Origin: Candidatus Cloacimonas sp. 4484_275
GTDB lineage: Bacteria > Cloacimonadota > Cloacimonadia > Cloacimonadales > TCS61
Length of the DNA: 32,737 nucleotides
Assembly (NCBI GenBank): GCA_002085205.1
Contig: NATF01000012.1
Coordinates: forward strand, 1-32,737
Direction: 5' to 3'
The translations under genes were made by a program, and so were the position numbers. Each line of letters opens with the position of its first letter. The stretch's first letter is position 1. The notes under the pieces are model-generated. The model was not told the origin of the DNA. It did no database searches and saw nothing but the letters and a program-made list of their open reading frames with translations. Of this stretch, positions 1,909-32,737 are shown piece after piece.

Positions 1909-1962
1909 ATTTGTTCAAAATGATATTTTGAAATTATTTGTTCAAAATGATATTTTGAAATT
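1909..1962. repeat. Perfect 27-bp tandem duplication (2 copies) covering the lolA stop codon
   Basis: atttgttcaaaatgatattttgaaatt occurs at 1909-1935 and again at 1936-1962 with no mismatch. The copy at 1936-1962 (with t1935) encodes the LolA C-terminus FQNIILNK*. Confidence 0.9.
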
Positions 1963-2500
1963 CATATTTAACATAATTTCCGGCATCGTCAAAAAATGTA
2001 AAACCGACAATCAGGTTATGTTTTATCTTTACTTCAATTTTTTCTCCGGTTTCCGAAACCAATTCCACTTTGGAAAAGTTATCGGAATTTTCCAAAATTT
2101 TCTTCTCGGAATCATTCCAATAAAGCGCAATGAATTTATCGGGACGCAGTTCGGTATCAATTTTATCGGAAATCAGAGCTTGATTGGAAGTCGAATCGTA
2201 AATCGTGACGGCAAGCGTGTCAATGAGCATTTTTTGCCCCGCCGGTTCGGAATAATCAAGTAATAGAAAATTTTTATCATAAAAGATTTTACCGAGAGAT
2301 TTTTTCTCAACATCAAGCTCTTTCCAAAAATTTACCTGCTCGAAATCAGCTTGAAAAGACTTTATCGTTTTGTATTTTTTCTGCAAATCGGAATAAATCG
2401 TGTCTAATGTTTTTGTTTGCGCATAAAGCTGCGAACCGAAAATAATTGTCGTCAATAACAAGACAAATTCACAAAAAAATTTTCGCTTTCTTATTTTCAC
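1934..2500 (-). CDS. lolA: Outer-membrane lipoprotein carrier protein LolA family
   Basis: 188 aa with an N-terminal signal peptide (FFCEFVLLLTTIIFGSQLYAQ). FQADFEQ...GKIFYDKNFLLLDYSEPAGQKMLID matches the LolA fold signature. Position directly downstream of ftsK matches the ftsK-lolA arrangement of E. coli. Confidence 0.75.
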   Translation of the reverse strand: MKIRKRKFFCEFVLLLTTIIFGSQLYAQTKTLDTIYSDLQKKYKTIKSFQADFEQVNFWKELDVEKKSLGKIFYDKNFLLLDYSEPAGQKMLIDTLAVTIYDSTSNQALISDKIDTELRPDKFIALYWNDSEKKILENSDNFSKVELVSETGEKIEVKIKHNLIVGFTFFDDAGNYVKYEFQNIILNK

Positions 2501-2518
2501 TTTTTCCCGTTCCTCGTT

Positions 2519-4715
2519 TTATTCTTTCAAATATCCGTAAATTTTCAAATCTTCTTCGGAAGCCAGAACTTCCCGCGATTTACTGCCGACATGCGGACCG
2601 ATAATTCCGGCTTGTTCGAGCATATCTATCAATCTGCCGGCGCGCGCATAACCGATTTTGAAATGGCGTTGCAACATAGAAACGGAAGCGTTTCCGGCGG
2701 TTACAACAGCTACGGCGGCTTCGGGAAAAAGTTCGTCGTCGTATTCAAAATTTTCCAATTCGGTTTCTTCTTCATTCGGAATAATCTTGAAATCCTGTTC
2801 CGGCTTGGGTTGCGCTCTCAAATATTCCACCACATTTTGAATTTCCACATCGGAAATAAAAGCGCCGTGAATTCTTTCCACCGTTCCTTTTCCGGGCGGA
2901 AGAAAAAGCATATCTCCTTTTCCCAAAAGTTTTTCCGCACCATTGGCATCAATGATAACGCGGGAATCGATTTTTGTGGAAACTTTGAAGGCGATTCGGG
3001 AAGGAAAATTCGCTTTGATAATTCCGGTAATGACTTTGGTGGAAGGTCGTTGAGTCGCCAAAATCAAATGAATTCCGATGGCTCGCGCCATTTGTGCCAA
3101 ACGTGTAATCGGCCTTTCCACATCTTTCCCGACGGTCATCATCAAATCGGCAAATTCATCGACAACGATAACGATATAAGGAAGTTTCGTATCTTCCACC
3201 TCTTCCCCGTTTGCCAACAATCTTTCTATTTCGCGATTGTATCCGGCCAGATTTCTCACTTTGTATTTTTGCAGAAGTTCGTATCTTCTCTCCATTTCAA
3301 TTACGCCCCAATTCAAAGCGGCAAGCGCATTATCATTGTTCGGAAAGTTCAATTCTTTTCGGGTCTATCAGAACCAAACGCACTTCTTCGGGAGTGGTGC
3401 GGAAAAGAAGGCTATTGATAATTGTATTTACGCAAACACTTTTCCCGGATCCGGTCGCTCCCGCAATGAGCAAATGCGGCATTCCCGCCAAATCCGCCAC
3501 CACGGGATTTCCGGAAATATCCTTTCCGAGAGCAAAAGCAAGCACGCTGTCGTTGGAACGCATTTCTTCCGAAAGTAAAATATCTTTCAGAAAGATGGTG
3601 TCGCGATTTATGTTGGGAATTTCGATTCCAATTAAACCGCGTCCCGGAATCGGTGCTTGAACTCGAATGCTTTTTGCTTTGATAGCCAAAGCGAGATCAT
3701 TGACAAGTGAATGAAATTTGCTCACTTTCACACCCGGTGCGGGTTTAATTTCGTATTGCGTGATAATCGGTCCGATATTCACATTGATAACTTCCGCATC
3801 AACACTAAATTCCGCCAGTTTTTGCTCCAAAATTTTGCTGATCTTTTTTATGTTTTTCTCAATTTCCTCTCGGTTTCGTTTGCTTGACTTTGCACTAATA
3901 AGAAAAGATTCCACATCGGGTTTTTCATATTTCCGCGTCGGTTCGTCCGGCATATCTTCGGGATTTTGAGAAAGTTTTCTTTTCGGAATTTTCGGTTTGT
4001 AAATCGGCTCTTCTTCATCTTCTTCGGCAACATGATCTATGATATTGGGAACGGTTTCTTCTTTCGTTTTACGAACCGGAACTTTTTCCTTTTTCACAGT
4101 TTCTTTTTTGATTTTGGAAACTTTCGTTTTCTTTCTTCGCGAAAAGAGCGATAAAAATAATCGCCACAATTTTACGGAAATCGCAACAATAACTTTCTTG
4201 ATGTTTTCCACTTCAAAAATCATCAAAACAGAGGTGAGCGCAATTGCTATCGTAATAATTTGAGTTCCCGTATCGCCGAAAATTCCCGTGAAAAATTCGG
4301 AAATTTTTAGGTGAATAACTCCGACCGTCAACACTTCCGGTAATTGTTCCGCCGCTTTATTCGAGACAATCATCGCAAATTGCTGTCCGAAGAAAACGAG
4401 CGTCCAAAAAGAAAATATCTTCAAAAAAAGATTTTTCCGTGAAATATAAAAAATATGGAAAATTCCCAACAGAGCCGTTCCCAGAAAAACGGCGAGCGAG
4501 AAATATTTTCCGAAAATGTAAGAAAACCAGAAAGCGAAAAAAGCTCCGAAAGGACCTACAAGATTGTTAGTCGTGGGAAATTGCAATCCGATTATTTCAC
4601 CAAAAGACAAATTCGCCGATTTCAATTTCTGATAATCCAAAAAAATAACGGACGATTTTGCGCTTAAGGCAACTAAAAAGAGAATGGAAAGCAAAAATAC
4701 GGCAAACCAAAGACA
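2519..4715 (-). pseudogene. ftsK: DNA translocase FtsK, disrupted: N-terminus lost in a fusion to ychF, plus an internal deletion/frameshift at ~3333-3352
   Basis: Membrane domain (LWFAVFLLSILFLVAL...), Lys/Glu-rich linker and motor domain with Walker A LLIAGATGSGKS. The frame ends at ...LIDPKRIELSEQ* (3333). It resumes in another frame with NFPNNDNALAALNWGVIEMERRY... through the gamma winged helix (SVSMLQRHFKIGYARAGRLIDMLE). Confidence 0.85.
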
Positions 4716-5621
4716 TTCGGCTCGGATAAATCCGCGAGCAAGATCGGAATGTATTTTTCCTGCCGCTTCCAGAGCCGTGTTTCCTTTTTTGATTGTCCAA
4801 GCTCGCACTTCGTCTTTGCCAACCGTGAAAAAACTGATATAACCAAGTAGTTCATAAGAAAATTTCGTAAGACGGTCGCGCGCGGATTCTTTGATGTTCA
4901 ATTCCTCCATAAATTCTTTTGCCTCTTCCGCAGAAAGTCCTCCCAGCTCCATTTCAAACTTTCCGGCAAATTCGATAACTTTATAATTTTTTTCTATTTC
5001 GGAAATGAGTTCGGCATTTTGCCCGAAATTATTTTCATCGGAATTAAGGATTATCATTAGCGGTTTACGGCTGATAAATTGAAAACCGCGAATTGCTTTT
5101 TCCTCTTCTTCGTGAAGTTCCAACGAACGCAACGGCAGATTTTCATTCAAATGCGCAATTATTTTTTCAATCGCTTTCTCTTCAATTTGCAATTCCGGCG
5201 TTTTAATGCCGCGTTTTTTGCTTAATTCTATTTTCTCCAGTCGTTTTTCCGCTATAATCAAATCCGAAATGATAAGCTCGGAATCGATGCTTTCAATATC
5301 CTGAAGCGGTTGAGGATTTCCAAAACTTTGTGAAATCACATCATCGGAAAAATTGCGGATAACAAGCGCCAAAGCATCAGCGGTTTTTACCAAAGCGAGC
5401 GAAGAATCGGAAAAAACTCCGGATTTGGAAGAATCCGCTGTAAGTCCGACAAAATCAATGTATTCGATGGTGGCGTAAATAGTCTTTTTGGGTTGATACA
5501 TTTCCGAAAGTTTTGTAATGCGTTCATCTTTCACTTCCACGATTCCGAAATTCGGTTCTACTTTTCCGGTGGAATAAGCCGTTGTTTCCGCTTCCAATCC
5601 GGTGAGCGCGTTAAAAATAGT
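4716..5621 (-). pseudogene. ychF: Ribosome-binding ATPase YchF fragment, lacking the P-loop N-terminus and ~45 C-terminal residues
   Basis: Residues ~156-457 of the 917-aa ORF. It starts at TIFNALTG (E. coli has GKSTLFNALT, so the G1 P-loop is missing). It ends at FFTVGKDEVRAWTIKKGNTALEAAGKIHSDLARGFIRAE, which matches E. coli YFTAGVKEVRAWTI...AAGKIHTDFEKGFIRAQ. Confidence 0.8.
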
Positions 5622-6086
5622 TTCGAAAATTGTTATTCGCAAAACGGTCTTTTCGGGATATCTGTTTTTAACAAACACAATTGCCGGTTGAGTTTTCTTG
5701 CCGTCGATTTCCACGCCTTTTTGTAGTTTTTGAACTTGTAACCCCGTTATTTTACCTTTAACACTTACTTTGTAAACCTTCGGAAGTTTGAAACGCGGAT
5801 GAATTATCTTATGGGCAAAATCACCGTCGTTGGTAAACAGAAGCAAACCTTCCGAACGATAATCCAATCTGCCGATAGCAAAAAGATGTGTGTGAAAATC
5901 CGGTAACAAATCATAGACGGTTTTCCTCTGAAAATCATCGCGATGAGTCACCAAATAATTTTTCGGTTTATTCAACATCAAATAAATCTTTTCCGGCAGG
6001 AGTTTCACCCGCTTTCCTTGATATTCCACAACATCTTTTTCCGGATCGATACGAGCCGCCAATTCGGTGCAAACCGAACCGTTCAC
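5622..6086 (-). pseudogene. RsuA/RluB-family pseudouridine synthase fragment: S4 domain truncated at the N-terminus, C-terminal motif III missing
   Basis: Residues 1-155 of the 917-aa ORF: ...VNGSV..RIDPEKDVVEYQGKRV (end of the S4 domain), YLMLNKPKNYLVTH, and catalytic-Asp motif AIGRLDYRSEGLLLFTNDG. It stops at RITIFE, where the family continues EGRNRQ(I/V)RRM. Confidence 0.75.
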
Positions 6087-6088
6087 AA

Positions 6089-6574
6089 CTATTTTTCCAA
6101 AGATTCCTTCATTATCGTATCAAAAAGATCCTGATAAATTTTATTCTGTGCTTCCTCTTCGGTCTTGAATTCACTCAATTCATTGCTGCCGGAATAGGTT
6201 TCCGAAAGCACCAACGAGTTATTTTGATATAAAATTTTATTTTTCTTTAAATCGGTAAATATAATTTTGAACAGAATTTTTACTTCATATTCATCCACAT
6301 TTTCATTACCGTAAGAATAAATTTTGTTCGAATAATCGAGAATTTCCCCTTCAAGTTTACAATCCGGATTCAAATCGACTATTTTTAATCTGCCGTCTTT
6401 TTCAAACAAATCCGTAAGTTTTAAAAGCAGATTCTCTTCGAGTTCATACTCGGTTGTATTATTGGAAAAAGTCGCAATTTTAATGGTTTTCAGATAAGGA
6501 TAACTGTTTGTGTAAACAGAATAACTGCAAGACAATAAAAGCACAAAAATAATTATCAACATTTTCTTTATCAT
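6089..6574 (-). CDS. LptE-like LPS-assembly lipoprotein (tentative)
   Basis: 161 aa with lipobox VLLLSC. TIKIATFSNNTTEYELEENLLLKLTDLF...CKLEGEILDY... resembles LptE/RlpB-type lipoproteins. The last ~10 codons overlap the truncated S4 reading frame. Confidence 0.5.
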   Translation of the reverse strand: MIKKMLIIIFVLLLSCSYSVYTNSYPYLKTIKIATFSNNTTEYELEENLLLKLTDLFEKDGRLKIVDLNPDCKLEGEILDYSNKIYSYGNENVDEYEVKILFKIIFTDLKKNKILYQNNSLVLSETYSGSNELSEFKTEEEAQNKIYQDLFDTIMKESLEK

Positions 6575-6604
6575 AGTCGTTAAGACATTTTTTTAATTTT
6601 TTTT

Positions 6605-6629: not shown

Positions 6630-6679
6630 ATAATAACGGAAATAATAATTTTTCAAATCGCAATATTAAAGGAGAGAAG

Positions 6680-7370: not shown

Positions 7371-8565
7371 TTTTGTTGTTATACTCTTTTATCCAATTCA
7401 GGGTTTTAAAATATTTATTTGAGGCATTCCAGAGAATATATCCATCTGCTTTTGCATCTACAACGGCACCTATTTGCGCATAAATATACGCCGGTTTATA
7501 ATTCACTTTCCAACTATTCGCTTGAATATACGGAATTATTCTGCAAGTAGGTTTGGAATATCTTTTCGTTAGTTTCGTTCCCTTAAAAACAATGTAATAC
7601 GGTTCATTGGAAACATTTTTCCTAAAACCGAAATTATCCGCAAAGTGCGAAGAATAAATCATCGGATGAATTGCATCCAAATATTTGGTTAATCTTTTAA
7701 TGTCTTGACCGGTATTTTTTACATCCGCCTCTCTCTGCCAAGCAACAATGGCAAAAATATCGCCGGTTAACATAATATTATGTTTAGAACATATTTTTTT
7801 AACTTTTTTCACAAAATTTTCTATTATATCGGTTTTATTTCTGAATTCATAAGTGCTGTCTCGAAGAGCAATTAAAGAATCTTCCCTTTCATAATAAAAT
7901 TCTGCGTTCTTTAAATTTCCCTGCGTAGGAAACCTTATATAATCAAGTTGGATTTCATCGATTCCGCTTTTTGCGGCATCTTCGATAATATTTATCAACT
8001 CTTTTTGTACTCGCGGCTGCGAAGGATCAAGCCAAGAAGCTTTCCTTCTTTTACTCTCTTTCCAAGCCTCTTTTGTTTGTTTGTTCTTTGGTCTGAGTGT
8101 CGAATCTTGTTCGGCGGAAAATTGATCGTGAAACATAACAATTCTTCCTACCGCTCTCATTTTTCGTTCGTGTAAAATATTCACGACCGACGAGATATCA
8201 ACTATCGGTTTTAATCTTCCCTTCTTTTCCTGTTTAAGCGGAACTTTGAAAAAAATATGGCCGTTCATGTTTTTCAGATCAAAAACGACTGTGTTTATTC
8301 CCGCGGCAGCCGCACTATCTAAAATTGGCAAAAATTTCTTGGAAGCAACGGTATAAGCATTTAAGTATATTCCCTTCGTAAAAGAATAAGGAGAAATGTG
8401 TGAAACAGGTTTCTTTTTTTCCGGTTTATTTTCGGAAACATGATTCTCTTCCGCCTTTACGATATTGTTTGAATGAATTGTATTATTTTGGGATTTAATG
8501 TTTTTTCGGCAACTCAAAACAACGATAATAAGTAGTAATATTATAAAATATTTTTTATGTAACAT
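7366..8565 (-). CDS. Putative glycoside-hydrolase-like TIM-barrel lipoprotein (DUF4015/GHL-type)
   Basis: Lipobox IIVVLSC. KGIYLNAYTV...INTVVFDLKNMNGHIFF...RIVMFHDQ...SWLDPS...GIDEIQLDYIRFP matches the DUF4015 pattern. The ORF-track start at 8577 is TTG, and I prefer the ATG at 8565 (MLHKKYF). Confidence 0.55.
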   Translation of the reverse strand: MLHKKYFIILLLIIVVLSCRKNIKSQNNTIHSNNIVKAEENHVSENKPEKKKPVSHISPYSFTKGIYLNAYTVASKKFLPILDSAAAAGINTVVFDLKNMNGHIFFKVPLKQEKKGRLKPIVDISSVVNILHERKMRAVGRIVMFHDQFSAEQDSTLRPKNKQTKEAWKESKRRKASWLDPSQPRVQKELINIIEDAAKSGIDEIQLDYIRFPTQGNLKNAEFYYEREDSLIALRDSTYEFRNKTDIIENFVKKVKKICSKHNIMLTGDIFAIVAWQREADVKNTGQDIKRLTKYLDAIHPMIYSSHFADNFGFRKNVSNEPYYIVFKGTKLTKRYSKPTCRIIPYIQANSWKVNYKPAYIYAQIGAVVDAKADGYILWNASNKYFKTLNWIKEYNNKK

Positions 8566-8577
8566 ATATTCGTACAA

Positions 8578-8597
8578 TAAAAAAAACGGGTAATTTC

Positions 8598-8606
<9 letters not shown>
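8578..8606 (-). terminator. Intrinsic terminator of the atp operon
   Basis: On the minus strand, aacgggtaa-gaaa-ttacccgtt is followed by tttttttt. The stem includes the atpC stop codon. Confidence 0.7.
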
Positions 8607-11272
<2,666 letters not shown>

Positions 11273-11307
11273 TTTTCCCCGATTTTCTTTTCGATTTTAG
11301 AAAATTT

Positions 11308-12807
11308 CTAAAATTTGCTTATAACTTTTTCGCAGATTTTTCTCATTTCCGCTTTGATTTCATCGGTAATTTTATCTTGAACAAGTTTTTTCATAAAATC
11401 CTGATATTCGGAATCAAGAGTCGCATATAATTCTTCTTCCACTTTCTTAATGTCGTTAAGTTCTATCTTATCAAGATAACCTTCGTTCGCCATGAAGATA
11501 ATGAATATTTGCTTGGCAACCGGCAACGGAGAATATTGATCTTGTTTGAGAATTTCCACAAGCCTTTCCCCTCTTCGCAACTGAGCTTGTGTAGCTTTAT
11601 CAAGATCTGAACCGAATTTTGAAAATGCTTCCAATTCCGCATATTGAGCCAAATTCAACCGAAGTTGACCGGTTACGCCTTTCATCGCTTTAATTTGAGC
11701 ATTTCCACCCACACGAGAAACGGAAAGACCGGCATTAATAGCGGGACGCACACCCGAATAGAAAAGTCTGCTTCCCAAATAAATTTGCCCGTCAGTAATG
11801 GAAATTACATTCGTGGGAATGTATGCCGTAATATCATCCGCTTGCGTTTCGATAATCGGAAGAGCGGTAAGCGACCCGCCGCCAAGTTCATCATTAAGTT
11901 TGGAAGCTCTTTCCAATAATCTTGAATGAAGATAAAAAACATCGCCCGGATACGCTTCTCTTCCCGGCGGTCTTCTCAAAAGCAAAGATAATTCACGATA
12001 AGCAACGGCATGTTTGGAAAGATCATCGTAAATAATTAAAGCATGTTTGCCGTTGTCGCGGAAATATTCTCCCATCGTGGCGCCGGCATAAGGAGCAAGA
12101 TATTGCAACGAGGCAGCTTCGGATGCGGATGCGGAAACAATTATCGTGTAATCCATCGCATTGTGTTCTTCCAAGGTTTTTACGATTTTGGCAACGGAAG
12201 ACTTCTTTTGACCGATTGCCACATAAATACAAAATACATCCGATTCCTTTTGGTTAATAATCGTATCGATGGCAATAGCGGTTTTTCCGGTTTGTCTGTC
12301 GCCGATAATCAATTCACGCTGTCCTCTTCCAATCGGAATCATGGAATCGATTGATTTAATACCCGTTTGCAAAGGTTCTTTCACCGGTTGTCTCTGAATG
12401 ATTCCTAACGCCTTTCTTTCAATCGGCATATTTTTTTCCGCTTTGATTTCCCCTTTTCCGTCTATCGGTTCTCCCAAAGCGTTCACAACTCTTCCCAAAA
12501 GTGCGTCGCCGACCGGAACCTGAAGTATCTTCCGAGTTCTGCGGGCTGTATCTCCTTCTTTAATCTTTCTGGTTTCACCGAAAATAATACATCCCACATT
12601 GTCTTCTTCCAGATTCAGCGCCATTCCGACGACTCCGCCGGGAAACTCTATCATTTCGCCGGCCATCACATTGTTCAAACCGTAAACTCTGGCAATTCCA
12701 TCACCGACTTGAACCACTTTTCCGGTTTCGTCTATATCGATATCAAACTGAAAATTATTGATTTGGGATTTTAAAATCGCACTAATTTCGTCAGGTTGTA
12801 TTTTCAT
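11308..12807 (-). CDS. atpA: F1 ATP synthase subunit alpha
   Basis: 499 aa with Walker [16 protein letters not shown]. Confidence 0.97.
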
Positions 12808-13352
12808 TTTACCCTCATTTTATCAATTATATTTTTGAATTTTATCAAATTGTTTCTGATCGAGCCGTCTATTCGGAAAGATTCCGTTTCCGCCACAAAA
12901 CCGCCGATAATCTCGGGTTCAATCCTGGCATCAAAAATAACATCTTTATTGAAAATTTCAGAAACTTTTTTCCGAATATTTTCTATAACCGTCGGCGAAT
13001 GTTTGTGAGCGGTTTTCAATATCACTTTTATCTGATTTCTTTTCTCATAAATAATCGCTTCCAGTTCGTATAAAATCGCTTCGATAATCGAAAATCTGTG
13101 CTTTTCGACCAAAATTCCGAACAGATTTCTCCAGACTTTGCGATTCTGCAAATTTTCCGAAAGCAAATTAATTAATTCTTCTCTTTTTTGCGGACTTAAA
13201 AGATAGGAATCAATTTTTTTTATCAACTCGCCGGAATCTGTAAAAACCTTTCTTAATGCCGAAATATCATTCAGCAACGAATCAAAATTGCTCTCTCTGA
13301 AAATTTCCAGAAATGCTTTGGCGTATCGTTGCGCAACTATTCTGTCTTTCAT
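12804..13352 (-). CDS. atpH: F1 ATP synthase subunit delta (OSCP)
   Basis: 182 aa. Position between atpF and atp[10 protein letters not shown] start, and C-terminus [22 protein letters not shown]. Confidence 0.85.
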
Positions 13353-13831
13353 TTATCGCCTTTTTCACTTAGCATTTTGTTTATCAAGGTAAGGTCTTCT
13401 TTCTCATCGATTTTGCCGGAAAGGAATTTTTCCGAAAGCTGAGAAACCATTTCCGCCAATTCGCTTTTAATTTGCGCCAGAACCTTTTCTTTTTCATGAA
13501 TAAGCTGTTCTTCAAGTTCTTGCATCATTCTTCTCTCGTGCTGTTTGGCAGATTTAACTATTTCCGTGGCTTGTTTTTCCGCTTCCAGTTTTGCTCTTTT
13601 TTTCAATCTGCGGATTTCTTCCGCCGTCTTTTTGAGCTCTTCCTCTTTTTCTCTAACAAGTTCAAGCGCTTTCTGTTTGGAAATTTTAGCATTTTCCATA
13701 TCGGAAATAATCTTATCTCTTCGCTCCGCCAAAAATTTATTAATCGGCTTATACAGCAGTTTGTTAAGAATGATTAATAAAAGCACAAAATTCAGAATCA
13801 CAATTATTAAAGAATAATCTATATTAATCAT
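13349..13831 (-). CDS. atpF: Fo ATP synthase subunit b
   Basis: 160 aa with a single N-terminal TM segment (LIIVILNFVLLLIILNKLL) followed by a long charged helix. Confidence 0.85.
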   Translation of the reverse strand: MINIDYSLIIVILNFVLLLIILNKLLYKPINKFLAERRDKIISDMENAKISKQKALELVREKEEELKKTAEEIRRLKKRAKLEAEKQATEIVKSAKQHERRMMQELEEQLIHEKEKVLAQIKSELAEMVSQLSEKFLSGKIDEKEDLTLINKMLSEKGDK

Positions 13832-13873
13832 AAAAACTCCGTCTATGAATTTGGGAGAAAAATTTTATGCTTT

Positions 13874-14810
<937 letters not shown>

Positions 14811-15739
14811 TTACTCCGAAATCTCCACACCAATATATGTGAGCGCCAACATTGTAAACACAAAAGCTTGAATCGTTCCTACAAAAATTCCAAAAAATAA
14901 ATTGAGCCCGATGGGAACTATAACAAAATGAACCAACGAGGAAACCACTAAAATAATTATGGCTCCTCCCAATATGTTTCCGAAAAGTCGGAAAGAAATA
15001 GAAACGACTTTTGCCACTTCACCCACTATATCGAGCAAAAATAGAGGATTTTTTACGAAATTAATGTAATTTTGAATATGATGCCAAAATCCTTTAACTT
15101 TGATTGCCGTGAATTGAACGACAATCATGGCGGCAATTCCCAAGCCGAGCGGAACATTTAAATTTCTGGTCGGCTCCATAAATCCCGGGTCGGCTCCATA
15201 AATCCCGGAATCGGCACCATTCCGATTAAATTACAAACCCAAATAAAAATGAAAAGCGTTACAATATAAGGGGTATAATGAATTCTTTCTTTTCCGACCG
15301 TTTCCACCACAAATTCTTCCAAAGTGGTGTAAAGCATTTCAAACATAAGTTGCGGTTTTGTTGGTTTTTCAAATAATTGCTTTTTAATAATGTAAGCAAC
15401 CCAAAGCAAGACCAAATCGACAATCAGCAGCATTCTGAGAAGCTGAAAAGTTCCTACCGGCGTATTTTTGAAAAAAGCGTGAAAAAAATCATATAAGCGA
15501 GTACTGCCGTAGATTGCTTTTTTTTCGCCTTTTTCTTCTATATATTCATCTCTTTGAAATTCTTCCGTGATTTTTTCCTGCAAATCGTAATGTGATTTCA
15601 CATTGCGAAAAACGAATTTTCCTTCGGAAAAACCAACTTGCAATTGTTTGTTAAATCCTCCGGAAATAACGACAAGAATTACTTCAATGACGAAAAATAT
15701 GAGAAAATACTTTTTCAGTGACCCTTTTTTTCGAGCCAT
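14811..15739 (-). pseudogene. atpB: Fo ATP synthase subunit a, split by a 20-bp tandem duplication
   Basis: ORFs 15158-15739 (...IPGFMEPTRDLWSRPEI*) and 14811-15179 (MEPTRNLNVPLGLG...ISFRLFGNILGG with the essential Arg). The span is 929 nt, and 929 - 20 = 909 = 303 codons, so removing one repeat copy restores a single ORF. Confidence 0.9.
15169..15208. repeat. Perfect 20-bp tandem duplication inside atpB
   Basis: gtcggctccataaatcccgg occurs at 15169-15188 and 15189-15208 (phase ambiguous by 1 nt). It duplicates the codons for PGFMEPTR. Confidence 0.95.
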
Positions 15740-15742
15740 TAA

Positions 15743-16037
15743 TCAATCCTTCTTACCTTTTTTTGACAAAAATCCAATTAATTCATTCGCATAAATTGCA
15801 ATTTGAGCCATCAAAAGACCCAAACCAAAAAAAATGATGTCGGGTTTAATAAAAATCAATATCAAAAACGAATATAAAATCAATCAAAAACGAATATAAA
15901 ATCAGGAAAGAATATCGCAGCAAAGAACCTTTGGCGGCATTCACTTTTGCCTTGTTTTCACCCAGCACCAAACCCCTTTTAATGTTTATTGCCAACCAAA
16001 CAATAATTCTCGTTATTGATAGTATCAAATATTTCAT
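15743..16037 (-). pseudogene. AtpI-like small membrane protein, frameshifted by a 22-bp tandem duplication
   Basis: The track ORF 15846-16037 ends ...SFLILYSFLIDFIFVFDIDFY*. Deleting one repeat copy gives 273 nt = 91 codons: ...RYSFLILYSFLILIFIKPDIIFFGLGLLMAQIAIYANELIGFLSKKGKKD*. That ends at TGA 15743-15745, 3 nt before the atpB ATG. The AtpI assignment rests on position and hydrophobicity only. Confidence 0.5.
15861..15904. repeat. Perfect 22-bp tandem duplication
   Basis: atcaaaaacgaatataaaatca occurs at 15861-15882 and 15883-15904 with no mismatch. Confidence 0.95.
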
Positions 16038-16056
16038 TATTTTTCATAATATTTTT

Positions 16057-16191
16057 TCAATATTTTGTAAGCAGTAAATATTCAATGAAGGAAAGCCCAA
16101 GTTGAGACACAAGACCAAAATATTTCAAAATGGTCTGATCCGGTTTTCTCAGTTTTTTCCACAAAGAAAATTCGTTATTCTTTTTTGTCAT
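16057..16191 (-). CDS. AtpZ/'ATPase_gene1'-like small protein, possibly truncated
   Basis: From the ATG at 16191: MTKKNNEFSLWKKLRKPDQTILKYFGLVSQLGLSFIEYLLLTKY*. The basic N-terminus followed by 'LKY.GLg.QLG' resembles the short proteins that precede atpI/atpB. It ends after one hydrophobic stretch, where family members usually have two. Confidence 0.35.
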   Translation of the reverse strand: MTKKNNEFSLWKKLRKPDQTILKYFGLVSQLGLSFIEYLLLTKY

Positions 16192-16595: not shown

Positions 16596-17939
16596 TTACT
16601 TCAGATTCTTTAAAATTTCCGCCGGATTGATGTTTTCTCCGTTTTTCAAAATCTCGAAATGCAGATGCGGAGCAGTGCTGTTGCCGGTGTTTCCGGCTAA
16701 TCCGATTATCTCTCCTTTTTGAACAGCCATATTTGATTTCACCAAAATCTTTGCCAAATGTGCATATAAAGTGGCATATTCGTTTAAATGGTCTATCATT
16801 ATTACTTTTCCCAAATATTTATCCTCATAAACGGAAAGTACTTCTCCGGAAGCGGCGGCAAGCACTTCAGTTCCTTTGGGAACAGCAAAATCAAGAGCGG
16901 GATGTTTCTTTGAAAAAACCTGACTTATGGCATAATCCGAATTTACGGGAATCAAATCAGGAAAATGCTTTTTTCTTTTTTTGATTTTTTCCAATTTTTC
17001 TTTTAATTCGCGTTTTTTAACGGAAAGCAATTTTTCGTCTGAACTATCTTTTTTAATATAATTATTGAGTTTTTCATTAATATTATCCGCTTGTTGTTTC
17101 GGTTTATTTAGTTCTTTTAATCTGCGATTTTCCGCGGAAAGTTTTTCGATGTAACCGGATGATATTTCAATTTCTTCCCGATGTGCTTTAATTCTTTTTC
17201 TTATGTTGTGATTTTCCAAGAGTAGAATTTCCGGAAAGGAAATCTCTTTTTCTTTTTTGGAATTAAGGGCAAGCGCATCGGTTTCCATGATTCTTTTGGC
17301 TTCCGTTTCCGCTTTCCGAACCGATAAACCGTTTTTGATGATATACTCGGCAAATTGCTCTTGTAATTCTTTTTTCACTTGTAAAATCGCGCGAGCATGA
17401 CCGGAAGAAAGTTTTTTTTCCAAAATCATTTTTTGTATTTTGGAACTAAGTTTCAAAATTCTGATGGAATTGGAAATTGTAACCCGTTCTTTTCCTACAA
17501 TTTCGGCAATTTGAGAATGGGTCATCCCGAATTCTTCACTCAATTGTCGGTATGCCAAAGCTTCTTCAATCGCATTCAAATCTTCGCGCTGCACATTTTC
17601 AATAATGGCAAATTGCAACTGTTCTTTTGGAGAAACGCTGCGAATAATTACCGGAATTTCATCGAAATTTGCAAGTTTCGCCGCTTCCAATCGTCTTTCT
17701 CCGGCAATAAGTTCGTATTCCGTCGTTGCCTTTTTGGTAACGATTATCGGCTGAATAAGACCGTTTTCTTTAAGAGATTTCGCCAATTCTTCCAATTTTT
17801 CTCGGTTAAATGTTTTGCGCGGCTGAAACCTGTTTGGTTTGATGTATTCCAATTTTACGGTTGTAATTCCGGTGGTTTTATCAACCGATTCCGGTCCTGA
17901 ATTAATTAACGCTTCCAATCCTCTTCCCAATTTACTCAT
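16596..17939 (-). CDS. parB: ParB (N-terminal and HTH domains, no C-terminal dimerisation domain) fused in frame to a coiled-coil plus M23/LytM peptidase domain; likely chimera
   Basis: Residues 1-~244 are ParB: GRGLEALI, IKPNRFQPRK, ELIAGERRLEAAKLA, HTH GMTHSQIAEIVGKERVTISNSIRILKL. Residues ~245-447 are coiled coil, then HPALDFAVPKGTEVLAAASGEVL...YAHL...GNTGNSTAPHLHFEI (HxxxD and HxH zinc motifs of M23). There is no signal peptide or TM segment before the peptidase part. Confidence 0.75.
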   Translation of the reverse strand: MSKLGRGLEALINSGPESVDKTTGITTVKLEYIKPNRFQPRKTFNREKLEELAKSLKENGLIQPIIVTKKATTEYELIAGERRLEAAKLANFDEIPVIIRSVSPKEQLQFAIIENVQREDLNAIEEALAYRQLSEEFGMTHSQIAEIVGKERVTISNSIRILKLSSKIQKMILEKKLSSGHARAILQVKKELQEQFAEYIIKNGLSVRKAETEAKRIMETDALALNSKKEKEISFPEILLLENHNIRKRIKAHREEIEISSGYIEKLSAENRRLKELNKPKQQADNINEKLNNYIKKDSSDEKLLSVKKRELKEKLEKIKKRKKHFPDLIPVNSDYAISQVFSKKHPALDFAVPKGTEVLAAASGEVLSVYEDKYLGKVIMIDHLNEYATLYAHLAKILVKSNMAVQKGEIIGLAGNTGNSTAPHLHFEILKNGENINPAEILKNLK

Positions 17940-20389: not shown

Positions 20390-20520
20390 CGAAAAAAAAT
20401 AACTTTTTTATATTTATATAAAAAATAAAGAAATATAACATTTTTGATTAAAATCGTTTTCGATAATTATAATTTCTCATCTTTATATTTTGTTTTGAAT
20501 TATCGTTTTTAAATGATTTT
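20390..20520. other. AT-rich block, candidate DNA-unwinding element of oriC
   Basis: About 130 bp of almost pure A/T (ttttttatatttatataaaaaataaagaaatataacatttttgattaaaatcgtttt...) immediately upstream of the DnaA-box cluster. Confidence 0.5.
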
Positions 20521-20603: not shown

Positions 20604-20716
20604 TTATCCACAATGATTTTCGATTATGTGGATAGTTGGGAATTTTTACACAGCTTTTTGATGTGTATTTATTTGAAACATAAGATGTTATGGTAAACAT
20701 AACAAAATGTGGATAA
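20604..20716. promoter_or_regulatory. DnaA-box cluster upstream of dnaA
   Basis: TTATCCACA at 20604-20612 (+, perfect). tgtggatag at 20627-20635 (minus-strand CTATCCACA, 1 mismatch). tgtggataa at 20708-20716 (minus strand, perfect). Confidence 0.8.
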
Positions 20717-22134: not shown

Positions 22135-22256
22135 TTATCCACTTATCCACATTTCATTATGTTAATTTATGTAGATAACTTTCGTTATTTTCAAAAAAAT
22201 TTAATCTTGGTGGATAACAAACAATCAAAAGAAAAATTTTCCACAGTTTATCCACA
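22135..22256. promoter_or_regulatory. DnaA-box cluster downstream of dnaA
   Basis: TTATCCACT at 22135-22143. TTATCCACA at 22143-22151 (perfect). tgtagataa at 22170-22178 (minus-strand TTATCTACA). ggtggataa at 22209-22217 (minus-strand TTATCCACC). TTTTCCACA at 22237-22245. TTATCCACA at 22248-22256 (perfect). Confidence 0.8.
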
Positions 22257-25429: not shown

Positions 25430-25924
25430 ATGAAAAAATTATCTTTGATTGTATCAACTCTTTTCGGAACAGGTTATTTTCCGAAAGCGCCGGGAACGGC
25501 TGGAACAATTGTCGCCGCGCTTTTTTATTATTTTTTTCTGATGAAATTTATATCTTCTTTTGCTTCGGAGCTTATCTTCACCGCCATTTTAATTTTCAGC
25601 GGTATTATTTCCGTGATTTTCGTCTCCGAAGCGGAAAAAATTTTGGGACATGATAACGGGAAAATAGTTGTGGACGAATTTATCGGATTTTTATTTGCAT
25701 TGTTGTTTCTTCCGAAAACTTTGATGGTTATTATAATCGCTTTTATTCTTTTCAGGATTTTTGATATTTTCAAACCGGAGCCGGTTAATGTTTTGCAAAA
25801 ACTTTCCGGCGGTTGGGGAGTTTTGGCGGATGATGTGATGGCGGGAATATATGCAAATTTTTCTTTGCAAATATTAATTAGGATTTTCCCGAAATTTTTT
25901 ACTTTATTAAATGGGAATAGTTAA
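25430..25924 (+). CDS. pgpA: Phosphatidylglycerophosphatase A
   Basis: LFGTGYFPKAPGTAGTIVA, IVVDEFIGF, FRIFDIFKP and LADDVMAGIYA are the PgpA family signatures. Confidence 0.9.
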   Translation: MKKLSLIVSTLFGTGYFPKAPGTAGTIVAALFYYFFLMKFISSFASELIFTAILIFSGIISVIFVSEAEKILGHDNGKIVVDEFIGFLFALLFLPKTLMVIIIAFILFRIFDIFKPEPVNVLQKLSGGWGVLADDVMAGIYANFSLQILIRIFPKFFTLLNGNS

Positions 25925-25950
25925 AAAAATAAATTTAAAGAGGAGAGAAA

Positions 25951-27816: not shown

Positions 27817-28567
27817 AATTAATACGAAAGGAAAAGAACTATTTCTTGCGTTGGCAACTTTGAGCTTGTTTCTTCTGATGATTATCACCACGCTTCTTTG
27901 GTGGTTTATTTCTCCGCGCCTTCATGAAATCAGCGAATTTTTGGCGGATATTTCTTTAACCGCTCTCCGTGTTTTTTATTTGATATTGGTTATCGGAACC
28001 ATTCTGATTTATCTCACTTGTTTTCTCGAGCGCAATTTTCTCGTAGCTCGTTTTGCCGTGAAACTATTTATCGTGGTAATTTTTCCGGTTACAATTCTGC
28101 TGGGAAAAATTTTCGGAATTTCCAAGGATAAAATCAGAGAATCCTATGTTTATGTAAATAACGCTTTTATAAAGGCGCTGAAGAAAAAATTCGATCCTTC
28201 GGAAGTTCTTATTTTGCTTCCGCATTGTTTGCAAAATACGGAATGCGGCATCAGAATAACGGTTGATATTTTCAAATGCGTTCGGTGCGGAAAATGTGAT
28301 ATCGGCGATTTGACAAAACTTGCCGTGGAACATGGAATTCCGATTGCCATTGCCACCGGCGGAACACTTGCCAGAAGAATCATCGTGGAACATCGCCCCA
28401 AATTCATTATCGCCGTTGCTTGCGAGCGCGATCTCGTGGATGGATTACACGATGTTTTTCCTATTCCCGTTTACGGAGTTCTGAATGAAAGACCGGAAGG
28501 ACCTTGCATTAACACAAGAGTTATGGTTGAAAAAATCAGACTCGCTTTGAAGATTATTTTGAAATGA
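27806..28567 (+). CDS. DUF116 family membrane protein with a Cys-rich motif
   Basis: N-terminal TM helices, then LLPHCLQNTECGIRITVDIFKCVRCGKCDIGDL...ATGGTLARRII...IIAVACERDLVDG, which is typical of DUF116. The start is taken at ATG 27806 (the track ORF begins at 27758, inside fmt). Confidence 0.7.
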   Translation: MDIEINTKGKELFLALATLSLFLLMIITTLLWWFISPRLHEISEFLADISLTALRVFYLILVIGTILIYLTCFLERNFLVARFAVKLFIVVIFPVTILLGKIFGISKDKIRESYVYVNNAFIKALKKKFDPSEVLILLPHCLQNTECGIRITVDIFKCVRCGKCDIGDLTKLAVEHGIPIAIATGGTLARRIIVEHRPKFIIAVACERDLVDGLHDVFPIPVYGVLNERPEGPCINTRVMVEKIRLALKIILK

Positions 28568-29628: not shown

Positions 29629-29641
29629 TTTTGAGGAAGAA

Positions 29642-30496
29642 ATGAAGAATTTCGGAATATTTTTCAATCCCAATTATCAAGATAAAAAAGCGATTTTTAA
29701 CCTTCTGAAGCAACTGTATGAAAACAAAAATTTACGGTTTTTCAAGTCGGAAGAACAAAGAGAAGTTTTACCGGATTTTATTCGTTGTCTAAAAAAAGAA
29801 AAGAAGGTAAAACTTGATTGTATCTTTGTCTTCGGCGGTGACGGCACAATTTTGAAAGCATTGAATTTCAGTTTGAAAACGAAAGCGCCGATACTCGGAA
29901 TTAATTTGGGAAAATTGGGATTTCTCTCGGAAAGTAGCCTGAAAGAATTGGAAAAATCGATTGATGATTTGAAGAAAAACAAATTCAAAGTTCAGGCTCG
30001 AATGTTATTAAAGGTAATTCTGAGAAGAAATAAAAAAGTAATTTTTTCATCTCTTGCCCTTAACGATGCCGTGATTTACAAAGGTGAAGCTCCGAAATTA
30101 ATCGATGTGAAAATAAGCAGTAATCGGCGCTTTGTCGTGGAAACGAGATGTGACGGTGTAATTGCCGCCACTCCCACCGGTTCTACGGCTTATTCTCTTT
30201 CCGCCGGCGGTCCCATTCTTTCGCCGATTATGGATGCAATTGTTGTGGCTCCTCTCAATCCTCATATTTTATCCGTGCGACCGATGGTCTTTTCCTCAGA
30301 CGATAATATCGGTTTCACCATAATGAATGCCGACCACAAAATACTTTTGCAATTGGACGGTCAAAATAGGTTTGAACTCCACAAAGGCGATAAAATATTG
30401 GTGACAGCCGCTTCCCAAAAGGTGGATTTTATCAAACTTTCCAATCGGACTTTTTATCAGATTCTTCGAAAAAAGCTTCATATGGGAAAAAAATGA
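29642..30496 (+). CDS. nadK: NAD+ kinase
   Basis: VFGGDGTILKA, GINLGKLGFL, NDAVI and ATPTGSTAYSLSAGGPIL. Confidence 0.93.
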   Translation: MKNFGIFFNPNYQDKKAIFNLLKQLYENKNLRFFKSEEQREVLPDFIRCLKKEKKVKLDCIFVFGGDGTILKALNFSLKTKAPILGINLGKLGFLSESSLKELEKSIDDLKKNKFKVQARMLLKVILRRNKKVIFSSLALNDAVIYKGEAPKLIDVKISSNRRFVVETRCDGVIAATPTGSTAYSLSAGGPILSPIMDAIVVAPLNPHILSVRPMVFSSDDNIGFTIMNADHKILLQLDGQNRFELHKGDKILVTAASQKVDFIKLSNRTFYQILRKKLHMGKK

Positions 30497-32171
30497 TAAA
30501 TTCTCTTAGAATCAAAAATTTTATAATTGTCAAAGAATTGGAACTTAATTTTGGAAAAGGATTACAGGTTTTAAGCGGAGAAACCGGCACCGGAAAGTCG
30601 ATAATTGTGGGAGCGATAGATTTTGCGTTCGGAGGAAAATTTCATCCCGGTTTCTTATTTGACGACTCAAAACCCGCAATTGTAGAGATAACTTTCGATG
30701 TTAATTCCGAAAATAAAAGTTTGTTAAAATTAATTTCGGAATACGAAGTTGATATTTCCGAAAACGAAATTTGTTTTACCACCGAATTAACTCCGCTTCA
30801 GAAAAGAAGAATTTTTTTGAACGGCAGGCGAATTTCTCGGAGCATTGTAAAACAATTTAGAGATTTGTTGCTTGATTTTCACAGTCAGCGCGACCAACAA
30901 TAATCGACAAATTCGGAGATTTGCAAACCGAACTAAAAGATTATCAAAGGCAATTCAGGGAAATTGAAAGTTTGAGCGAACAATTGCAAGAATTGCAAAC
31001 AGGCGAATCGGAACGGGAGGAGCGGATTAAATTGTATGAGTATCAGGCTGAGGAAATTGAGGAAATAAATCCTAAAATCGGAGAAGACGAAGAATTGCAA
31101 AAGGAGTGGAATTTGCTTTCCAACGCCAAGGAAATTATTTCTCAGGCGACTTTTATCGAGCAAGCCGTTTACGAAGCGGATAATTCGGTTTACGATATCA
31201 TAAATTCGTTCATCAACCGTCTTTCCGATTTTGAGGAAGCCGGCTCAAAAATTACGGATATTATTTCTTATTTGAAGGAATCGGCGGCAAATCTGGAAGA
31301 AGCCGTTTCCGAAGCAAGAAATCTGCGAGACAGTATCGAAATCGACGATCTTCGGTTGCAAGAATGCGAGACAAGATTAAATGAATTGAATGCTCTTAAA
31401 AGCAAATATAAAATGGAATTGCCGGAAATATTAAATTATTATCGGAAAATTAAAGGACTAATTGCAGAATCAAAATCCGATATTACTCGAATCAGTGAAC
31501 TTGAAGCGGAATTAAAAAAGAAATCTGAAGAACTTCATAAAAAAGCGGAAAAATTAAGCGAAAAAAGAAAAAGAATTTCGATAAAACTGGAAAAAGAAAT
31601 AGTCGAAAATATCAAAAAATTAGCAATTCCGGATGCTGAAATAAAGATAAAATTTGACAAAGTAACAAGAAAAAAAGTTTTTACTTCTTATTTGCAGGGA
31701 TTGTCCGAAACAGGACAAGATAGCGTAGAGATCTTTTTTTCAGCAAATAAGGGAGTAAAATTACAACCACTTTCCGTGTCGGCATCGGGAGGAGAAATTT
31801 CCAGGGTGCTTTTGGCGATAAAAAAGATTCTTTCCGATAAAATGGAAAGCAGAACGGTTATTTTTGACGAGATAGACACCGGAATCGGAGGTGAGACCGC
31901 CAATTATTTAGGAGAATTTATTTATAAAATAGGTAGGTTTCATCAAGTGGTTTGTATCACTCATTTGGCTCAGATAGCTTCTTTGGCGGATAAAAACTTT
32001 GCGATTGAAAAGATGAGCAAAAAGAATATTTCCGAAGTAATTGTTCGGGAACTTGATGCGAACGAGAAAAAAGAAGAAATTGCCAGAATGCTGTCCGGCA
32101 CAAAATCGGAATTAGCCGTAAAACATGCAGAAGAAATAATAAAAAAGAATTTGAGGAGAATTGATGGTTAG
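30493..32171 (+). pseudogene. recN: DNA repair protein RecN, interrupted at ~30895-30925 by a frameshift with ~9 codons apparently missing
   Basis: ORF 1 has Walker A LSGETGTGKSII and ends ...LLLDFHSQRDQQ*. The frame 2 nt ahead then reads ...PTIIDKFGDLQTELKDYQRQF..., through the coiled coil, to the signature LSVSASGGEISRVLLAIK and Walker B VIFDEIDTGIGG. Confidence 0.88.
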
Positions 32172-32737
32172 ATTAAGCAAAAGAACACAATATTTTATAG
32201 TATTTCTAATTTTTGTCGTATCGGTAGGAATCGGACTGAAAAAATCAAATCTGATGAAACAAACCAAAATTTCGTTAGATACTTCCAAGGCAACTAAGAT
32301 TTTCAAAGAAGAAAAAAACATGAAAAAAGTTCAGCTAGGCAGGTTGAAGGTTTGACCGAAGAAAAGGTGCAACTGAACGAAGAGGCTCAGTTTGATATCA
32401 ATATTGAAGAGCATTTGAAAAATAATAAATTTTTGATAGAGAAAACAAAAGAAGATATCAGTAAACGAAGAACCAGATCGACTGAAAAACTTAATGATTC
32501 CAATCGGTTGTTGAAAAAATTGCAGATGGAAATAGACAGTTTGAATTATGTGAAGGTTCTTCAAAAGCATAATAAAGATTACACATTGATTTTTCTCACG
32601 GTGATCCAAAACGACAAAACAACGACTTTTGCCTATAAAATGAAAGTTTTTGTAAAAACCACTTTTATTTCTTTGTTCTTGTTTATTTTGGGATTTATTC
32701 TTTTCTATTTGTTTATTATTCTTCTCACGAAATTAAT
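32161..32737 (+). pseudogene. Membrane-anchored coiled-coil protein of unknown function, apparently frameshifted near an A-run at ~32318-32330; runs off the right edge
   Basis: ORF 32161-32355 (TM segment YFIVFLIFVVSVGIGL) stops at 32355. The frame 2 nt ahead is open from ~32298 to the window end (…QVEGLTEEKVQLNEEAQFDINIEEHLKNNKFLIEKTKEDISKRR…LFLFILGFILFYLFIILL) and has no ATG near its beginning. Confidence 0.35.

Follow-up and report, generated by a model that had tools for sequence, protein, structure and literature searches.

Structural lesions in a Cloacimonadota contig from the Guaymas Basin are probably errors of contig construction

When a dozen clean deletions and duplications are met within 33 kb in the core genes of a bacterium, the question arises whether they belong to the genome of the organism or to the contig. 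This question is raised by a complete public contig of 32,737 bp (the window, i.e., the whole stretch of DNA analyzed) from a Guaymas Basin Cloacimonadota population, the lesion-bearing proteins of which are recorded in NCBI nr and JGI/IMG on a single contig of exactly this length. A sequence-only reading of the window had listed the lesions, had suggested tabulating indels against the closest sequences and measuring lesion density elsewhere in the bin, and had left the choice between mis-assembly or consensus collapse, a very recent burst of rearrangement, and a generated sequence. Comparison with independent assemblies shows that the lesions, though present in the sequence as deposited, occur in none of those assemblies, that they are blunt, and that their number is disproportionate to the substitution divergence. 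They are most probably errors of contig construction, and not features of the organism's genome.

Comparison with independent assemblies

The window was aligned with independent contigs from the assemblies ERZ2433807, ERZ23491052, and ERZ23491060, which are ~99.6–100% identical to it outside one tract (~99.9% DNA identity with natural contigs over >30 kb), and each lesion site is spanned by 1–3 independent assemblies. The reference contigs set against the lesions are those labeled L001/L005, L002, L004, L006, L007, and L008; L003 (a JGI 3300013103 contig) spans lesion-free DNA only, from 7699 to 13957. The comparison of the references with one another also included three short contigs from other samples (Logan SRR6301444, ERZ27227322, and JGI 3300013103), located past the right end of the window. 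No species-level genome was identified among the GTDB representatives, where the closest relative is 41% identical (SurA).

Seventeen indel events were found in the ~31.5 kb aligned: 12 deletions of 31–277 bp each (1,676 bp summed), three exact tandem duplications (27, 20, and 22 bp), and, as the only changes of 1–2 bp, a duplicated dinucleotide and the shortening of an A9 run to A8 (Table 1). All the joins are direct and collinear, and the window contains no N characters. The references are collinear with one another, with 0 gaps and 155 mismatches in ~69.7 kb of pairwise alignment. None of the covering references has any of the 12 deletions, the three exact duplications or the 2-bp duplication, and they show no length variation at the lesion sites. 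In the window, 15 of the ~39 genes are broken or fused by the lesions, only one of the 12 deletion lengths being divisible by 3; all the genes are intact in the independent contigs, and the intact proteins are present in ENA, Logan, JGI, and a second MAG.

The three perfect duplications and the nine deletion junctions recognized in the sequence-only reading (lptE–rluB, rluB–ychF, ychF–ftsK, ftsK, the c-subunit hairpin, parB–M23, ruvB, recN, and the AtpZ-like gene) are thus all borne out on alignment, as are the three in-frame fusions (RluB–YchF, YchF–FtsK, and ParB–M23). The junctions were correctly placed, but their number, put at about eight, was too low, further deletions being located at 16003 (119 bp), 23117 (277 bp), and 32336 (160 bp). 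Two probable homopolymer frameshifts had also been proposed: the alignment contains no coding homopolymer indel, the small changes being confined to +AT at 1866–1867 and the intergenic A9>A8 at 20392, and the supposed frameshifts are probably the 277-bp and 160-bp deletions, both of which lie beside A-runs.

Table 1. Positions in the window of the lesions, the chimeric reading frames and the divergent tract.
Feature	Position	Strand	Gene or region	Effect or content	Reference
2-bp tandem duplication, CAT>CATAT (+AT)	1866–1867	gene on −	lolA, 3' end	insertion	L002
27-bp exact tandem duplication	1909–1935, 1936–1962		lolA		not in L002
Chimeric 917-aa ORF	3333–6086	−	rluB, ychF, ftsK	RluB fragment, YchF fragment, and N-terminal FtsK; Pfam domains	
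41-bp deletion	junction 3340–3343, 2 bp ambiguity		inside ftsK	frameshift	L002
180-bp deletion	4712/4713, blunt		ychF–ftsK	in-frame fusion	L001 and L002
215-bp deletion	5621/5622, blunt		rluB–ychF	in-frame fusion	L001 and L002
119-bp deletion	junction 6094–6099, 4 bp ambiguity (TTCC)		lptE–rluB		references
107-bp deletion	14162/14163, blunt		fused c subunit, third hairpin		references
Divergent tract	14457–15083 (627 bp)		c-subunit hairpins 1–2 and 3' part of atpB		
20-bp exact tandem duplication	15168–15187, 15188–15207		atpB	frameshift	absent in relatives
22-bp exact tandem duplication	15861–15882, 15883–15904		133-aa gene between atpZ and atpB	frameshift	
119-bp deletion	16003/16004, blunt		133-aa gene adjoining atpZ		references
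103-bp deletion	16083/16084, blunt		AtpZ-like gene	codons 37–71 of 85 lost	
Chimeric 447-aa ParB–M23 ORF	16596–17939	−	parB, M23 peptidase	Pfam domains	
194-bp deletion	junction 17225–17228, 2 bp ambiguity		parB–M23		references
130-bp deletion	20153/20154, blunt		ruvB	codons 233–276 of 343; frameshift	
A9>A8 homopolymer change	20392		ruvB–dnaA intergenic		
277-bp deletion	23117/23118, blunt		410-aa lipoprotein-like gene	codons 246–338	
31-bp deletion	junction 30898–30901		recN	codons 136–146 of 569; frameshift	
160-bp deletion	junction 32336–32338		298-aa gene downstream of recN	codons 58–111	

Broken and fused genes

The 2-bp duplication shifts the frame of the last lolA codons, and the 27-bp duplication is in frame, yet a stop arises at the boundary between the two copies (LolA of 188 aa vs. 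211 aa). The 917-aa ORF is due to the deletions at 4712, 5621, and 6094. The first of these removes ychF from codon 318 to the end, the intergenic spacer, and ftsK codons 1–13, the second rluB from codon 184 to the end and ychF codons 1–14, and the third the end of lptE (its last two codons and stop), the spacer, and codons 1–26 of rluB. In all the references, RluB, YchF, and FtsK are encoded by separate genes (241, 359, and 757 aa), and the fused RluB–YchF–FtsK ORF is an artefact. The 41-bp deletion takes away codons 471–484 of the 757 in ftsK, in the motor domain, FtsK being intact (757 aa) in L002.

The ParB–M23 fusion is likewise an artefact. The deletion removes parB from codon 239 to the end and codons 1–18 of the M23 peptidase gene, and the references encode ParB (285 aa) and M23 (227 aa) separately. 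None of the best 120 ParB homologs carries an M23 domain, all of them being ParB-only proteins of 261–288 aa. A 29-mer spanning this junction gave no match in the collections of genome, metagenome, and viral contigs, a result which is uninformative, the window's own record having likely been masked. Natural multidomain fusions, too, are read as one long ORF in which multiple Pfam domains are encoded; in the window, however, the domains are cut at the join, and relatives with identical sequence encode separate full-length genes.

In the ATP synthase region, the 107-bp deletion removes codons 214–248 and part of the stop of the c-subunit gene, the intact protein being 248 aa long (P0163/P0164). 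The intact relatives do encode a c subunit with three hairpins, and it is its apparent truncation in the window that is not real; together with the rejection of the ParB fusion, this answers the concern previously expressed about conclusions on the c subunit and ParB. Through the frameshift caused by the 20-bp duplication, the a subunit (302 aa) is read as two ORFs, of 193 and 122 aa. Between these two lesions, the divergent tract shows ~75–88% DNA identity to the references and a 6-bp in-frame indel, while the sequence outside the tract is identical. Since the AtpB protein is still ~96% identical, the tract can be taken to be a natural allele and not noise. A metagenome scan with AtpB revealed no donor, all the matches being ≤80%. 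The tract lies entirely within the piece delimited by the joints 14162 and 15187, which flank the divergent allele, and the copy boundary 15187/15188 is exactly 104 nt past its last variant.

The joins, ~1 per 2 kb overall, are clustered at 14.1–16.1 kb, and seven of them lie within 3 kb. An island of only 80 bp (16004–16083), which carries a private mismatch at 16073, lies between two joints, and the contig produced by a second assembler also ends in the c-subunit region, at 14228. Further along the window, the 410-aa lipoprotein-like gene is intact in L004, L005, L007, and the MAG DRZ79 (RLC52970.1).

Junctions and substitutions

The microhomology at the 12 deletion junctions, in the order of their positions, amounts to 2, 0, 0, 4, 0, 0, 0, 2, 0, 0, 2, and 1 bp, i.e., a sum of 11 bp with a maximum of 4 bp and a value of 0 bp at 6–7 of the 12. 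Random deletions of equal sizes give a sum of 9.2 ± 3.8 bp, and the value observed is therefore at the level of chance. The boundaries of the 27-, 20-, and 22-bp duplications show ambiguities of 0, 1, and 0 bp, respectively, and these values give no indication that slippage or template switching was at work. No k-mer shared by the junctions was detected. The deleted segments are slightly richer in AT than the comparison sequences (33.6% vs. 37.8% GC, P about 0.02).

Slippage or microhomology-mediated end joining was considered as a candidate and rejected: the overlaps in the first-pass BLAST alignments gave 4–8 bp of microhomology (P = 0.014), and the exact re-derivation of the junctions at 16003 and 23117 erased this excess.

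The point differences between the window and the references comprise 34 synonymous, 8 non-synonymous, and 0 nonsense changes, and those within the broken genes 15 synonymous and 3 non-synonymous changes, with no stops. These ratios indicate that the genes have been under purifying selection right up to the lesions, and they agree with the previous description of the sequence between the lesions as pristine. Events of at least 20 bp number 15, vs. ~20 private substitutions and a single homopolymer change.

The possibility of slow pseudogenisation, which had already been discounted, is contradicted by the same data. Reductive genomes such as those of Mycobacterium leprae and recent endosymbionts can also contain many broken core genes in a short stretch, whereas a search of the window for the spectrum of natural decay yielded no nonsense changes, no 1-bp coding indels, and no relaxed selection in the broken genes, and the 34:8 ratio is not that of relaxed substitution. 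Nor have the lesions, which are nearly all blunt and 20–277 bp long, been inherited by close relatives: those with ~99.6–100% identity are intact, including relatives that are 99.9% identical.

Origin of the lesions

If the lesions arose during contig construction, the contig would be a chain of ~16 separately assembled stretches, ranging in length from 80 bp to 8 kb, put end to end. An unassembled gap between neighboring pieces, when shut to zero length without Ns, would give an apparent clean deletion of 31–277 bp, and an unrecognized overlap of the ends (a few to ~27 bp), both copies of which were retained, would appear as a perfect tandem duplication. The step responsible would presumably be scaffolding, gap closing or the removal of Ns after assembly, and we infer that the source is the IDBA-UD scaffolds of the Guaymas MAG set published in 2017. 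The MAGs of that set were obtained from unamplified bulk DNA using IDBA-UD (maxk 105) and Illumina reads of 125 bp; one of them, "Candidatus Cloacimonas sp. 4484_275", represents the same species, and the window probably belongs to it. This MAG consists of 113 IDBA-UD scaffolds with 62% completeness and 37.3% GC, the GC content of the window being 36.9%. A literature search on the accessions SAMN06251742/3, SRR6301444, and ERZ2433807 showed no link between the re-assembled samples and the MAG reads.

All 12 deletions fall within 31–277 bp and none is bigger; this ceiling lies in the range which read pairs with short inserts can bridge with 125-bp reads, and fits the joining of gaps. The mis-assembly option of the sequence-only reading is supported by the privacy of the lesions, the collinearity of the other assemblies with zero indels, and the bluntness of the junctions. 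Known misassemblies and scaffold-gap errors in short-read metagenomes similarly give length discrepancies of <1 kb, blunt direct joins, and exact short duplications private to one assembly, and they cluster where the assembly graph is complicated by differences between strains, as may be the case at 14.1–16.1 kb. The window differs from them in the unusually high density of the joins (~1/2 kb), the lack of Ns at the joins, and the presence of one piece of 80 bp.

Some details count against the joining of pieces: the window has no Ns, pieces of 80 and 121 bp are shorter than the contigs that scaffolders normally accept, and the deletion sizes, none of which is <31 bp, are narrower than expected from a simple exponential gap model. 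In a hand calculation, the exponential coverage-gap model fitted the mean deletion size (140 bp) and not the spread, and was rejected. The 104 nt that separate the joint 15187 from the final variant in the divergent tract equal k−1 for k = 105, matching the maxk of 105. This agreement was noticed after the fact and is no more than a hint, and at its left end the divergent piece departs from the k−1 rule.

A laboratory origin, in which the lesions are template-switch chimeras formed during MDA or PCR or rearrangements of an insert cloned in E. coli, is quite unlikely. Polymerase template switching, like slippage and microhomology-mediated events, can yield clean deletions and short tandem duplications, the length of the window (32.7 kb, ~34.3 kb when repaired) falls in the fosmid range, and several of the genes hit (atpB, that of the c subunit, the N-terminus of ftsK, and parB) are of a kind that is often toxic to E. 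coli as cloned DNA. Microhomology is typical of template-switch and MDA chimeras, however, and these are mostly inverted, whereas 12 of the 12 joins here are direct with microhomology at the level of chance; sixteen independent rearrangements fixed in a single clone would be implausible, and the MAG set that includes this species was made from unamplified DNA.

A real recent burst of rearrangement is unlikely. In its general form, a very recent burst of blunt deletions and short duplications would have struck a lineage, or just one damaged copy of the genome, functional copies being located elsewhere or the cell being non-viable, and we regard this as very improbable. The lesions do stand, internally consistent, in the deposited record, and ruvB and recN are both broken, a loss that might in theory promote instability of the genome. 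Against this, none of the covering independent assemblies has any of the lesions, and 15 events of at least 20 bp beside ~20 private substitutions and one homopolymer change are far from the known mutation spectra of bacteria. Chance-level microhomology and the 15:3 ratio without stops in the broken genes tell against it as well. The burst would furthermore disable the a and c subunits of the ATP synthase, FtsK, ParB, YchF, and 10 more genes within 33 kb, and a consensus assembly would need the damaged genome to be in the majority at 16 sites. That the contig faithfully records a real Cloacimonadota chromosome around oriC, freshly shattered by end-joining-like deletions and duplications before any other decay, possibly in connection with the loss of RuvB and RecN, is more improbable still.

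A non-natural sequence (generated, or edited beyond the handling of gaps) or one in which length variants present side by side were collapsed into a consensus is the least credible reading: the clean cuts and perfect copies look designed and the tract at 14457–15083, which carries another natural allele, attests to some mixing of haplotypes, but the ~99.9% identity to natural contigs with mostly synonymous differences and the deposition of the lesion-bearing proteins in NCBI nr and JGI/IMG lead us to reject generation, and the references, which are free of length polymorphism wherever a lesion lies, argue against collapse as the cause of the deletions.

As regards the density of lesions elsewhere in the bin, the comparison is limited to one neighboring contig of 6,003 bp, probably from the same MAG, in which 4/4 genes are intact and which is too small to decide the matter. 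Its intactness counts against joining errors in that their rate would not be uniform, though it is compatible with locally poor coverage.

The practical consequence concerns mainly the hygiene of databases. If the lesions are join errors, as we think, the deposited bin holds ~16 of them in 33 kb, which have given rise to false proteins in NCBI nr and IMG: the 917-aa "RluB–YchF–FtsK", the 447-aa "ParB–M23 peptidase", and truncated RuvB, RecN, AtpB, and c subunits. Novel domain architectures, gene losses, pseudogenes, and oddities of the ATP synthase are unsafe when read from this contig, and the intact reference contigs are preferable. Errors of this kind can be flagged without reads by means of near-identical independent assemblies. 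The lesion-bearing proteins found in NCBI nr and/or JGI/IMG include the 447-aa and 917-aa fusions, a 237-aa RuvB, a 136-aa RecN, and others; the RuvB and AtpB fragments are present in IMG and missing from NCBI, as would fit the handling of pseudogenes by the annotation pipeline.

Gene content of the window and its relatives

The window (36.9% GC) is densely coding and carries, from left to right, lolA, ftsK, ychF, rluB and lptE, the F-type ATP synthase operon, the genes encoding bactofilin and an M23 peptidase with parB, parA and rsmG, then ruvB and dnaA, and lastly surA-like genes, def, fmt, rsgA, NAD kinase and recN. In exact-sequence look-ups, its proteins, including the odd ones, were found in NCBI nr and/or JGI/IMG on a single contig as long as the window (32,737 bp). 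The window is therefore a whole deposited contig, and its lesions are part of the public record. Planted lesions or a generated sequence were ruled out, since the lesion-bearing proteins are already present in public collections. Annotation places the close relatives among Candidatus Cloacimonadota MAGs of the Guaymas Basin, and the MAG 'Candidatus Cloacimonas sp. 4484_275' (proteins OQX71386.1, OQX71387.1 and our P0166) belongs to the same species as the window. The Guaymas MAG assemblies are IDBA-UD scaffolds (k 75-105) built from 125-bp reads, and bin 4484_275 is listed with 62% completeness, 0.97 Mb, 113 scaffolds and 37.3% GC (PMC5569505). The window is probably part of this bin, judging by a source signature common to both.

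The reference contigs, retrieved by looking up the window's intact proteins in independent assemblies, were NODE_3864 and NODE_7605 of ERZ2433807, scaffolds 8963, 7298 and 13667 of ERZ23491052, scaffold 2519 of ERZ23491060, and sequences from JGI 3300013103. They are ~99.6-100% identical to the window outside one tract, and every gene in them is separate and of full length: LolA (211 aa), FtsK (757), YchF (359), RluB-like (241), LptE (162), three-hairpin c subunit (248), AtpB (302), AtpI-like (133), AtpZ (85), M23 peptidase (227), ParB (285), RuvB (343), a lipoprotein-like protein (410), RecN (569) and the product of the gene after recN (298 aa).

Lesions and their origin

BLASTN and exact junction reconstruction against the reference contigs showed 12 deletions in the window (1,676 bp in all), along with tandem duplications, and 15 of its ~39 genes are broken or fused. 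The sequence-only reading had described clean structural lesions here, and all the junctions it listed were recovered in the alignments, which added three deletions; the homopolymer frameshifts it proposed are not present, and were probably the 277-bp and 160-bp deletions, which adjoin A-runs.

Coordinates of lesions (relative to the reference contigs) and other features of the window
Feature	Window position	Size	Remark
2-bp tandem duplication	1866-1867	2 bp	within lolA 3' end
Exact tandem duplication	1909-1962	27 bp	not in references
Deletion	3340-3342	41 bp
RluB-YchF-FtsK ORF	3333-6086	917 aa	- strand; probable artefact
Substitution cluster, ftsK	4135-4139	5 bp	three, one non-synonymous
Deletion	4712/4713	180 bp
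Deletion	5621/5622	215 bp
Deletion	6094-6098	119 bp
c-subunit genes	13874-14807		- strand; 5485-6519 in relative's contig L001
Deletion	14162/14163	107 bp
Divergent tract	14457-15083	627 bp
Exact tandem duplication	15168-15207	20 bp	not in references
Exact tandem duplication	15861-15904	22 bp	not in references
Deletion	16003/16004	119 bp
Deletion	16083/16084	103 bp
ParB-M23 ORF	16596-17939	447 aa	- strand; probable artefact
Deletion	17225-17227	194 bp
Substitution cluster, parB	17370-17409	40 bp	four, all synonymous
Deletion	20153/20154	130 bp
A9>A8 change	20392		intergenic
DnaA-box cluster	20604-20716		3 matches, upstream of dnaA
dnaA	20761-22116
DnaA-box cluster	22135-22256		7 matches, downstream of dnaA
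Deletion	23117/23118	277 bp
surA-like/pgpA interruption	~25530-25546		11378-12408 in L005, 1-1749 in L006 (relatives' contigs)
Deletion	30898-30900	31 bp
Deletion	32336-32337	160 bp

For each lesion site there are one to three independent assemblies, and every one of them is intact. The references and three short contigs from other samples, the latter lying beyond the right end of the window, align collinearly throughout: pairwise alignments over ~69.7 kb contain 0 gaps and 155 mismatches. Among the collection's records, only one contig encodes the fused proteins, and none of the best 120 ParB homologs carries an M23 domain. The spectrum of events is wrong for mutation: 15 events of at least 20 bp stand against ~20 private substitutions and one homopolymer change, and there are no nonsense mutations among the differences between the window and its relatives. 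Synonymous substitutions outnumber non-synonymous ones by 34 to 8 overall and by 15 to 3 within the 'broken' genes, which indicates that the latter were under purifying selection essentially until the present.

The junction microhomologies of the 12 deletions (2, 0, 0, 4, 0, 0, 0, 2, 0, 0, 2 and 1; sum 11) are close to those of random deletions simulated at matching sizes (9.2 +/- 3.8), and the boundary ambiguity of the tandem duplications is 0-1 bp. Such blunt junctions speak against replication slippage, microhomology-mediated joining and polymerase template switching, and also against de Bruijn mis-joins via shared k-mers. The lesions are thus private, blunt, bounded in size and out of proportion to the divergence, and the selection pattern is intact, which supports the earlier view that they reflect probable mis-assembly rather than natural decay. 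They are most likely not biological, and the two fused ORFs, like the truncated RuvB, RecN, AtpB, c-subunit and LolA and other ORFs, are to be taken as artefacts. Features of the intact relatives, such as the fused c subunit with three hairpins and the single-hairpin one after it, stand independently. The main use of these findings lies in flagging erroneous database entries.

Probable joining of assembled pieces and other explanations

The lesions most likely arose when separately assembled pieces were strung together with gaps and overlaps improperly handled: gaps closed to zero length would appear as deletions, and short overlaps left unmerged would appear as perfect tandem duplications. 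All the joins are direct and collinear, and the deletions range from 31 to 277 bp with none larger, a span bridgeable by short-insert read pairs with 125-bp reads, which favors the joining of pieces. Five joins are clustered in 1.9-6.1 kb and seven in 14.2-17.2 kb, two stretches of ~8 kb each are lesion-free, and the 80-bp island between two joins at 16004-16083 carries a private mismatch, all of which fits joined pieces as well. Some software or editing step is presumed to have produced the lesions, which would then lack support in the reads.

Also in favor of this, a different natural allele occupies the piece that joins 14162 and 15187 delimit. Its divergent tract shows ~75-88% DNA identity to all the available relatives and is identical to them on both flanks; the changes are mostly synonymous ones in atpB, plus a 6-bp in-frame indel, and AtpB is still 96% identical to the references. 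No donor was found among 89 loci, and the tract represents either an allele from natural recombination or a contig of a co-occurring strain. Within the same region a contig from another assembler stops as well, at 14228. The 20-bp duplication has its copy boundary (15187/15188) exactly 104 nt past the last variant of the allele. This distance equals k-1 for k=105, which was the highest k given for the Guaymas assemblies of 2017, and is at most a post hoc hint, since the piece's left end breaks the rule.

Laboratory artefacts (MDA or PCR chimeras, or the instability of a fosmid-sized clone) are very improbable, since microhomology or inversions would normally be expected and the data set is an unamplified shotgun one. 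Also very improbable is a genuine burst of blunt-end rearrangements that struck one lineage very recently, since 16 events would have to make up the consensus of a sample of bulk sediment, with ATP synthase, FtsK and ParB, among others, disabled. A generated or edited sequence, or a collapse of length variants, is likewise very improbable: the sequence has a public provenance, its substitution pattern is natural, and the references show no length polymorphism.

Other features of the locus and its neighborhood

In the intact relatives, the gene for the fused c subunit (248 aa, with three matches to PF00137) precedes one for a normal one-hairpin c subunit (83 aa) in the ATP synthase operon. The fused protein keeps the conserved carboxylate in hairpins 1 (TET) and 3 (SEST), with Q in hairpin 2; in the window's divergent tract, the hairpin-1 E is replaced by Q (AAQT). 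The single c subunit shows the pattern Q...ESTxxY, which we take to be of the Na+ type, and the combination may resemble the situation in Acetobacterium woodii, with its mixed c rings.

DnaA-box matches (TTATCCACA, <=1 mismatch) flank dnaA, and number 20 window-wide versus 7.1 +/- 2.3 expected. Since the cumulative GC skew also turns at ~20 kb and gene orientation diverges at ~19.4 kb, the contig spans the chromosomal replication origin.

In the ERZ2433807 population, at least 2.8 kb of other DNA lies between the surA-like gene and pgpA, which is shortened to 93 aa, and a gene in this DNA has an EcoEI_R_C domain (type I restriction R subunit); unlike the window's lesions, this is a genuine strain-level structural difference. 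The small private substitution clusters in ftsK and parB may reflect micro-recombination or else noise in the local consensus. The next contig (6,003 bp) of the presumed source MAG 4484_275, as deduced from OQX71386.1, OQX71387.1 and our proteins P0151 and P0166, begins mid-enolase, and all four of its genes are identical or nearly identical to the intact references, which indicates that the join errors are unevenly spread over the bin.
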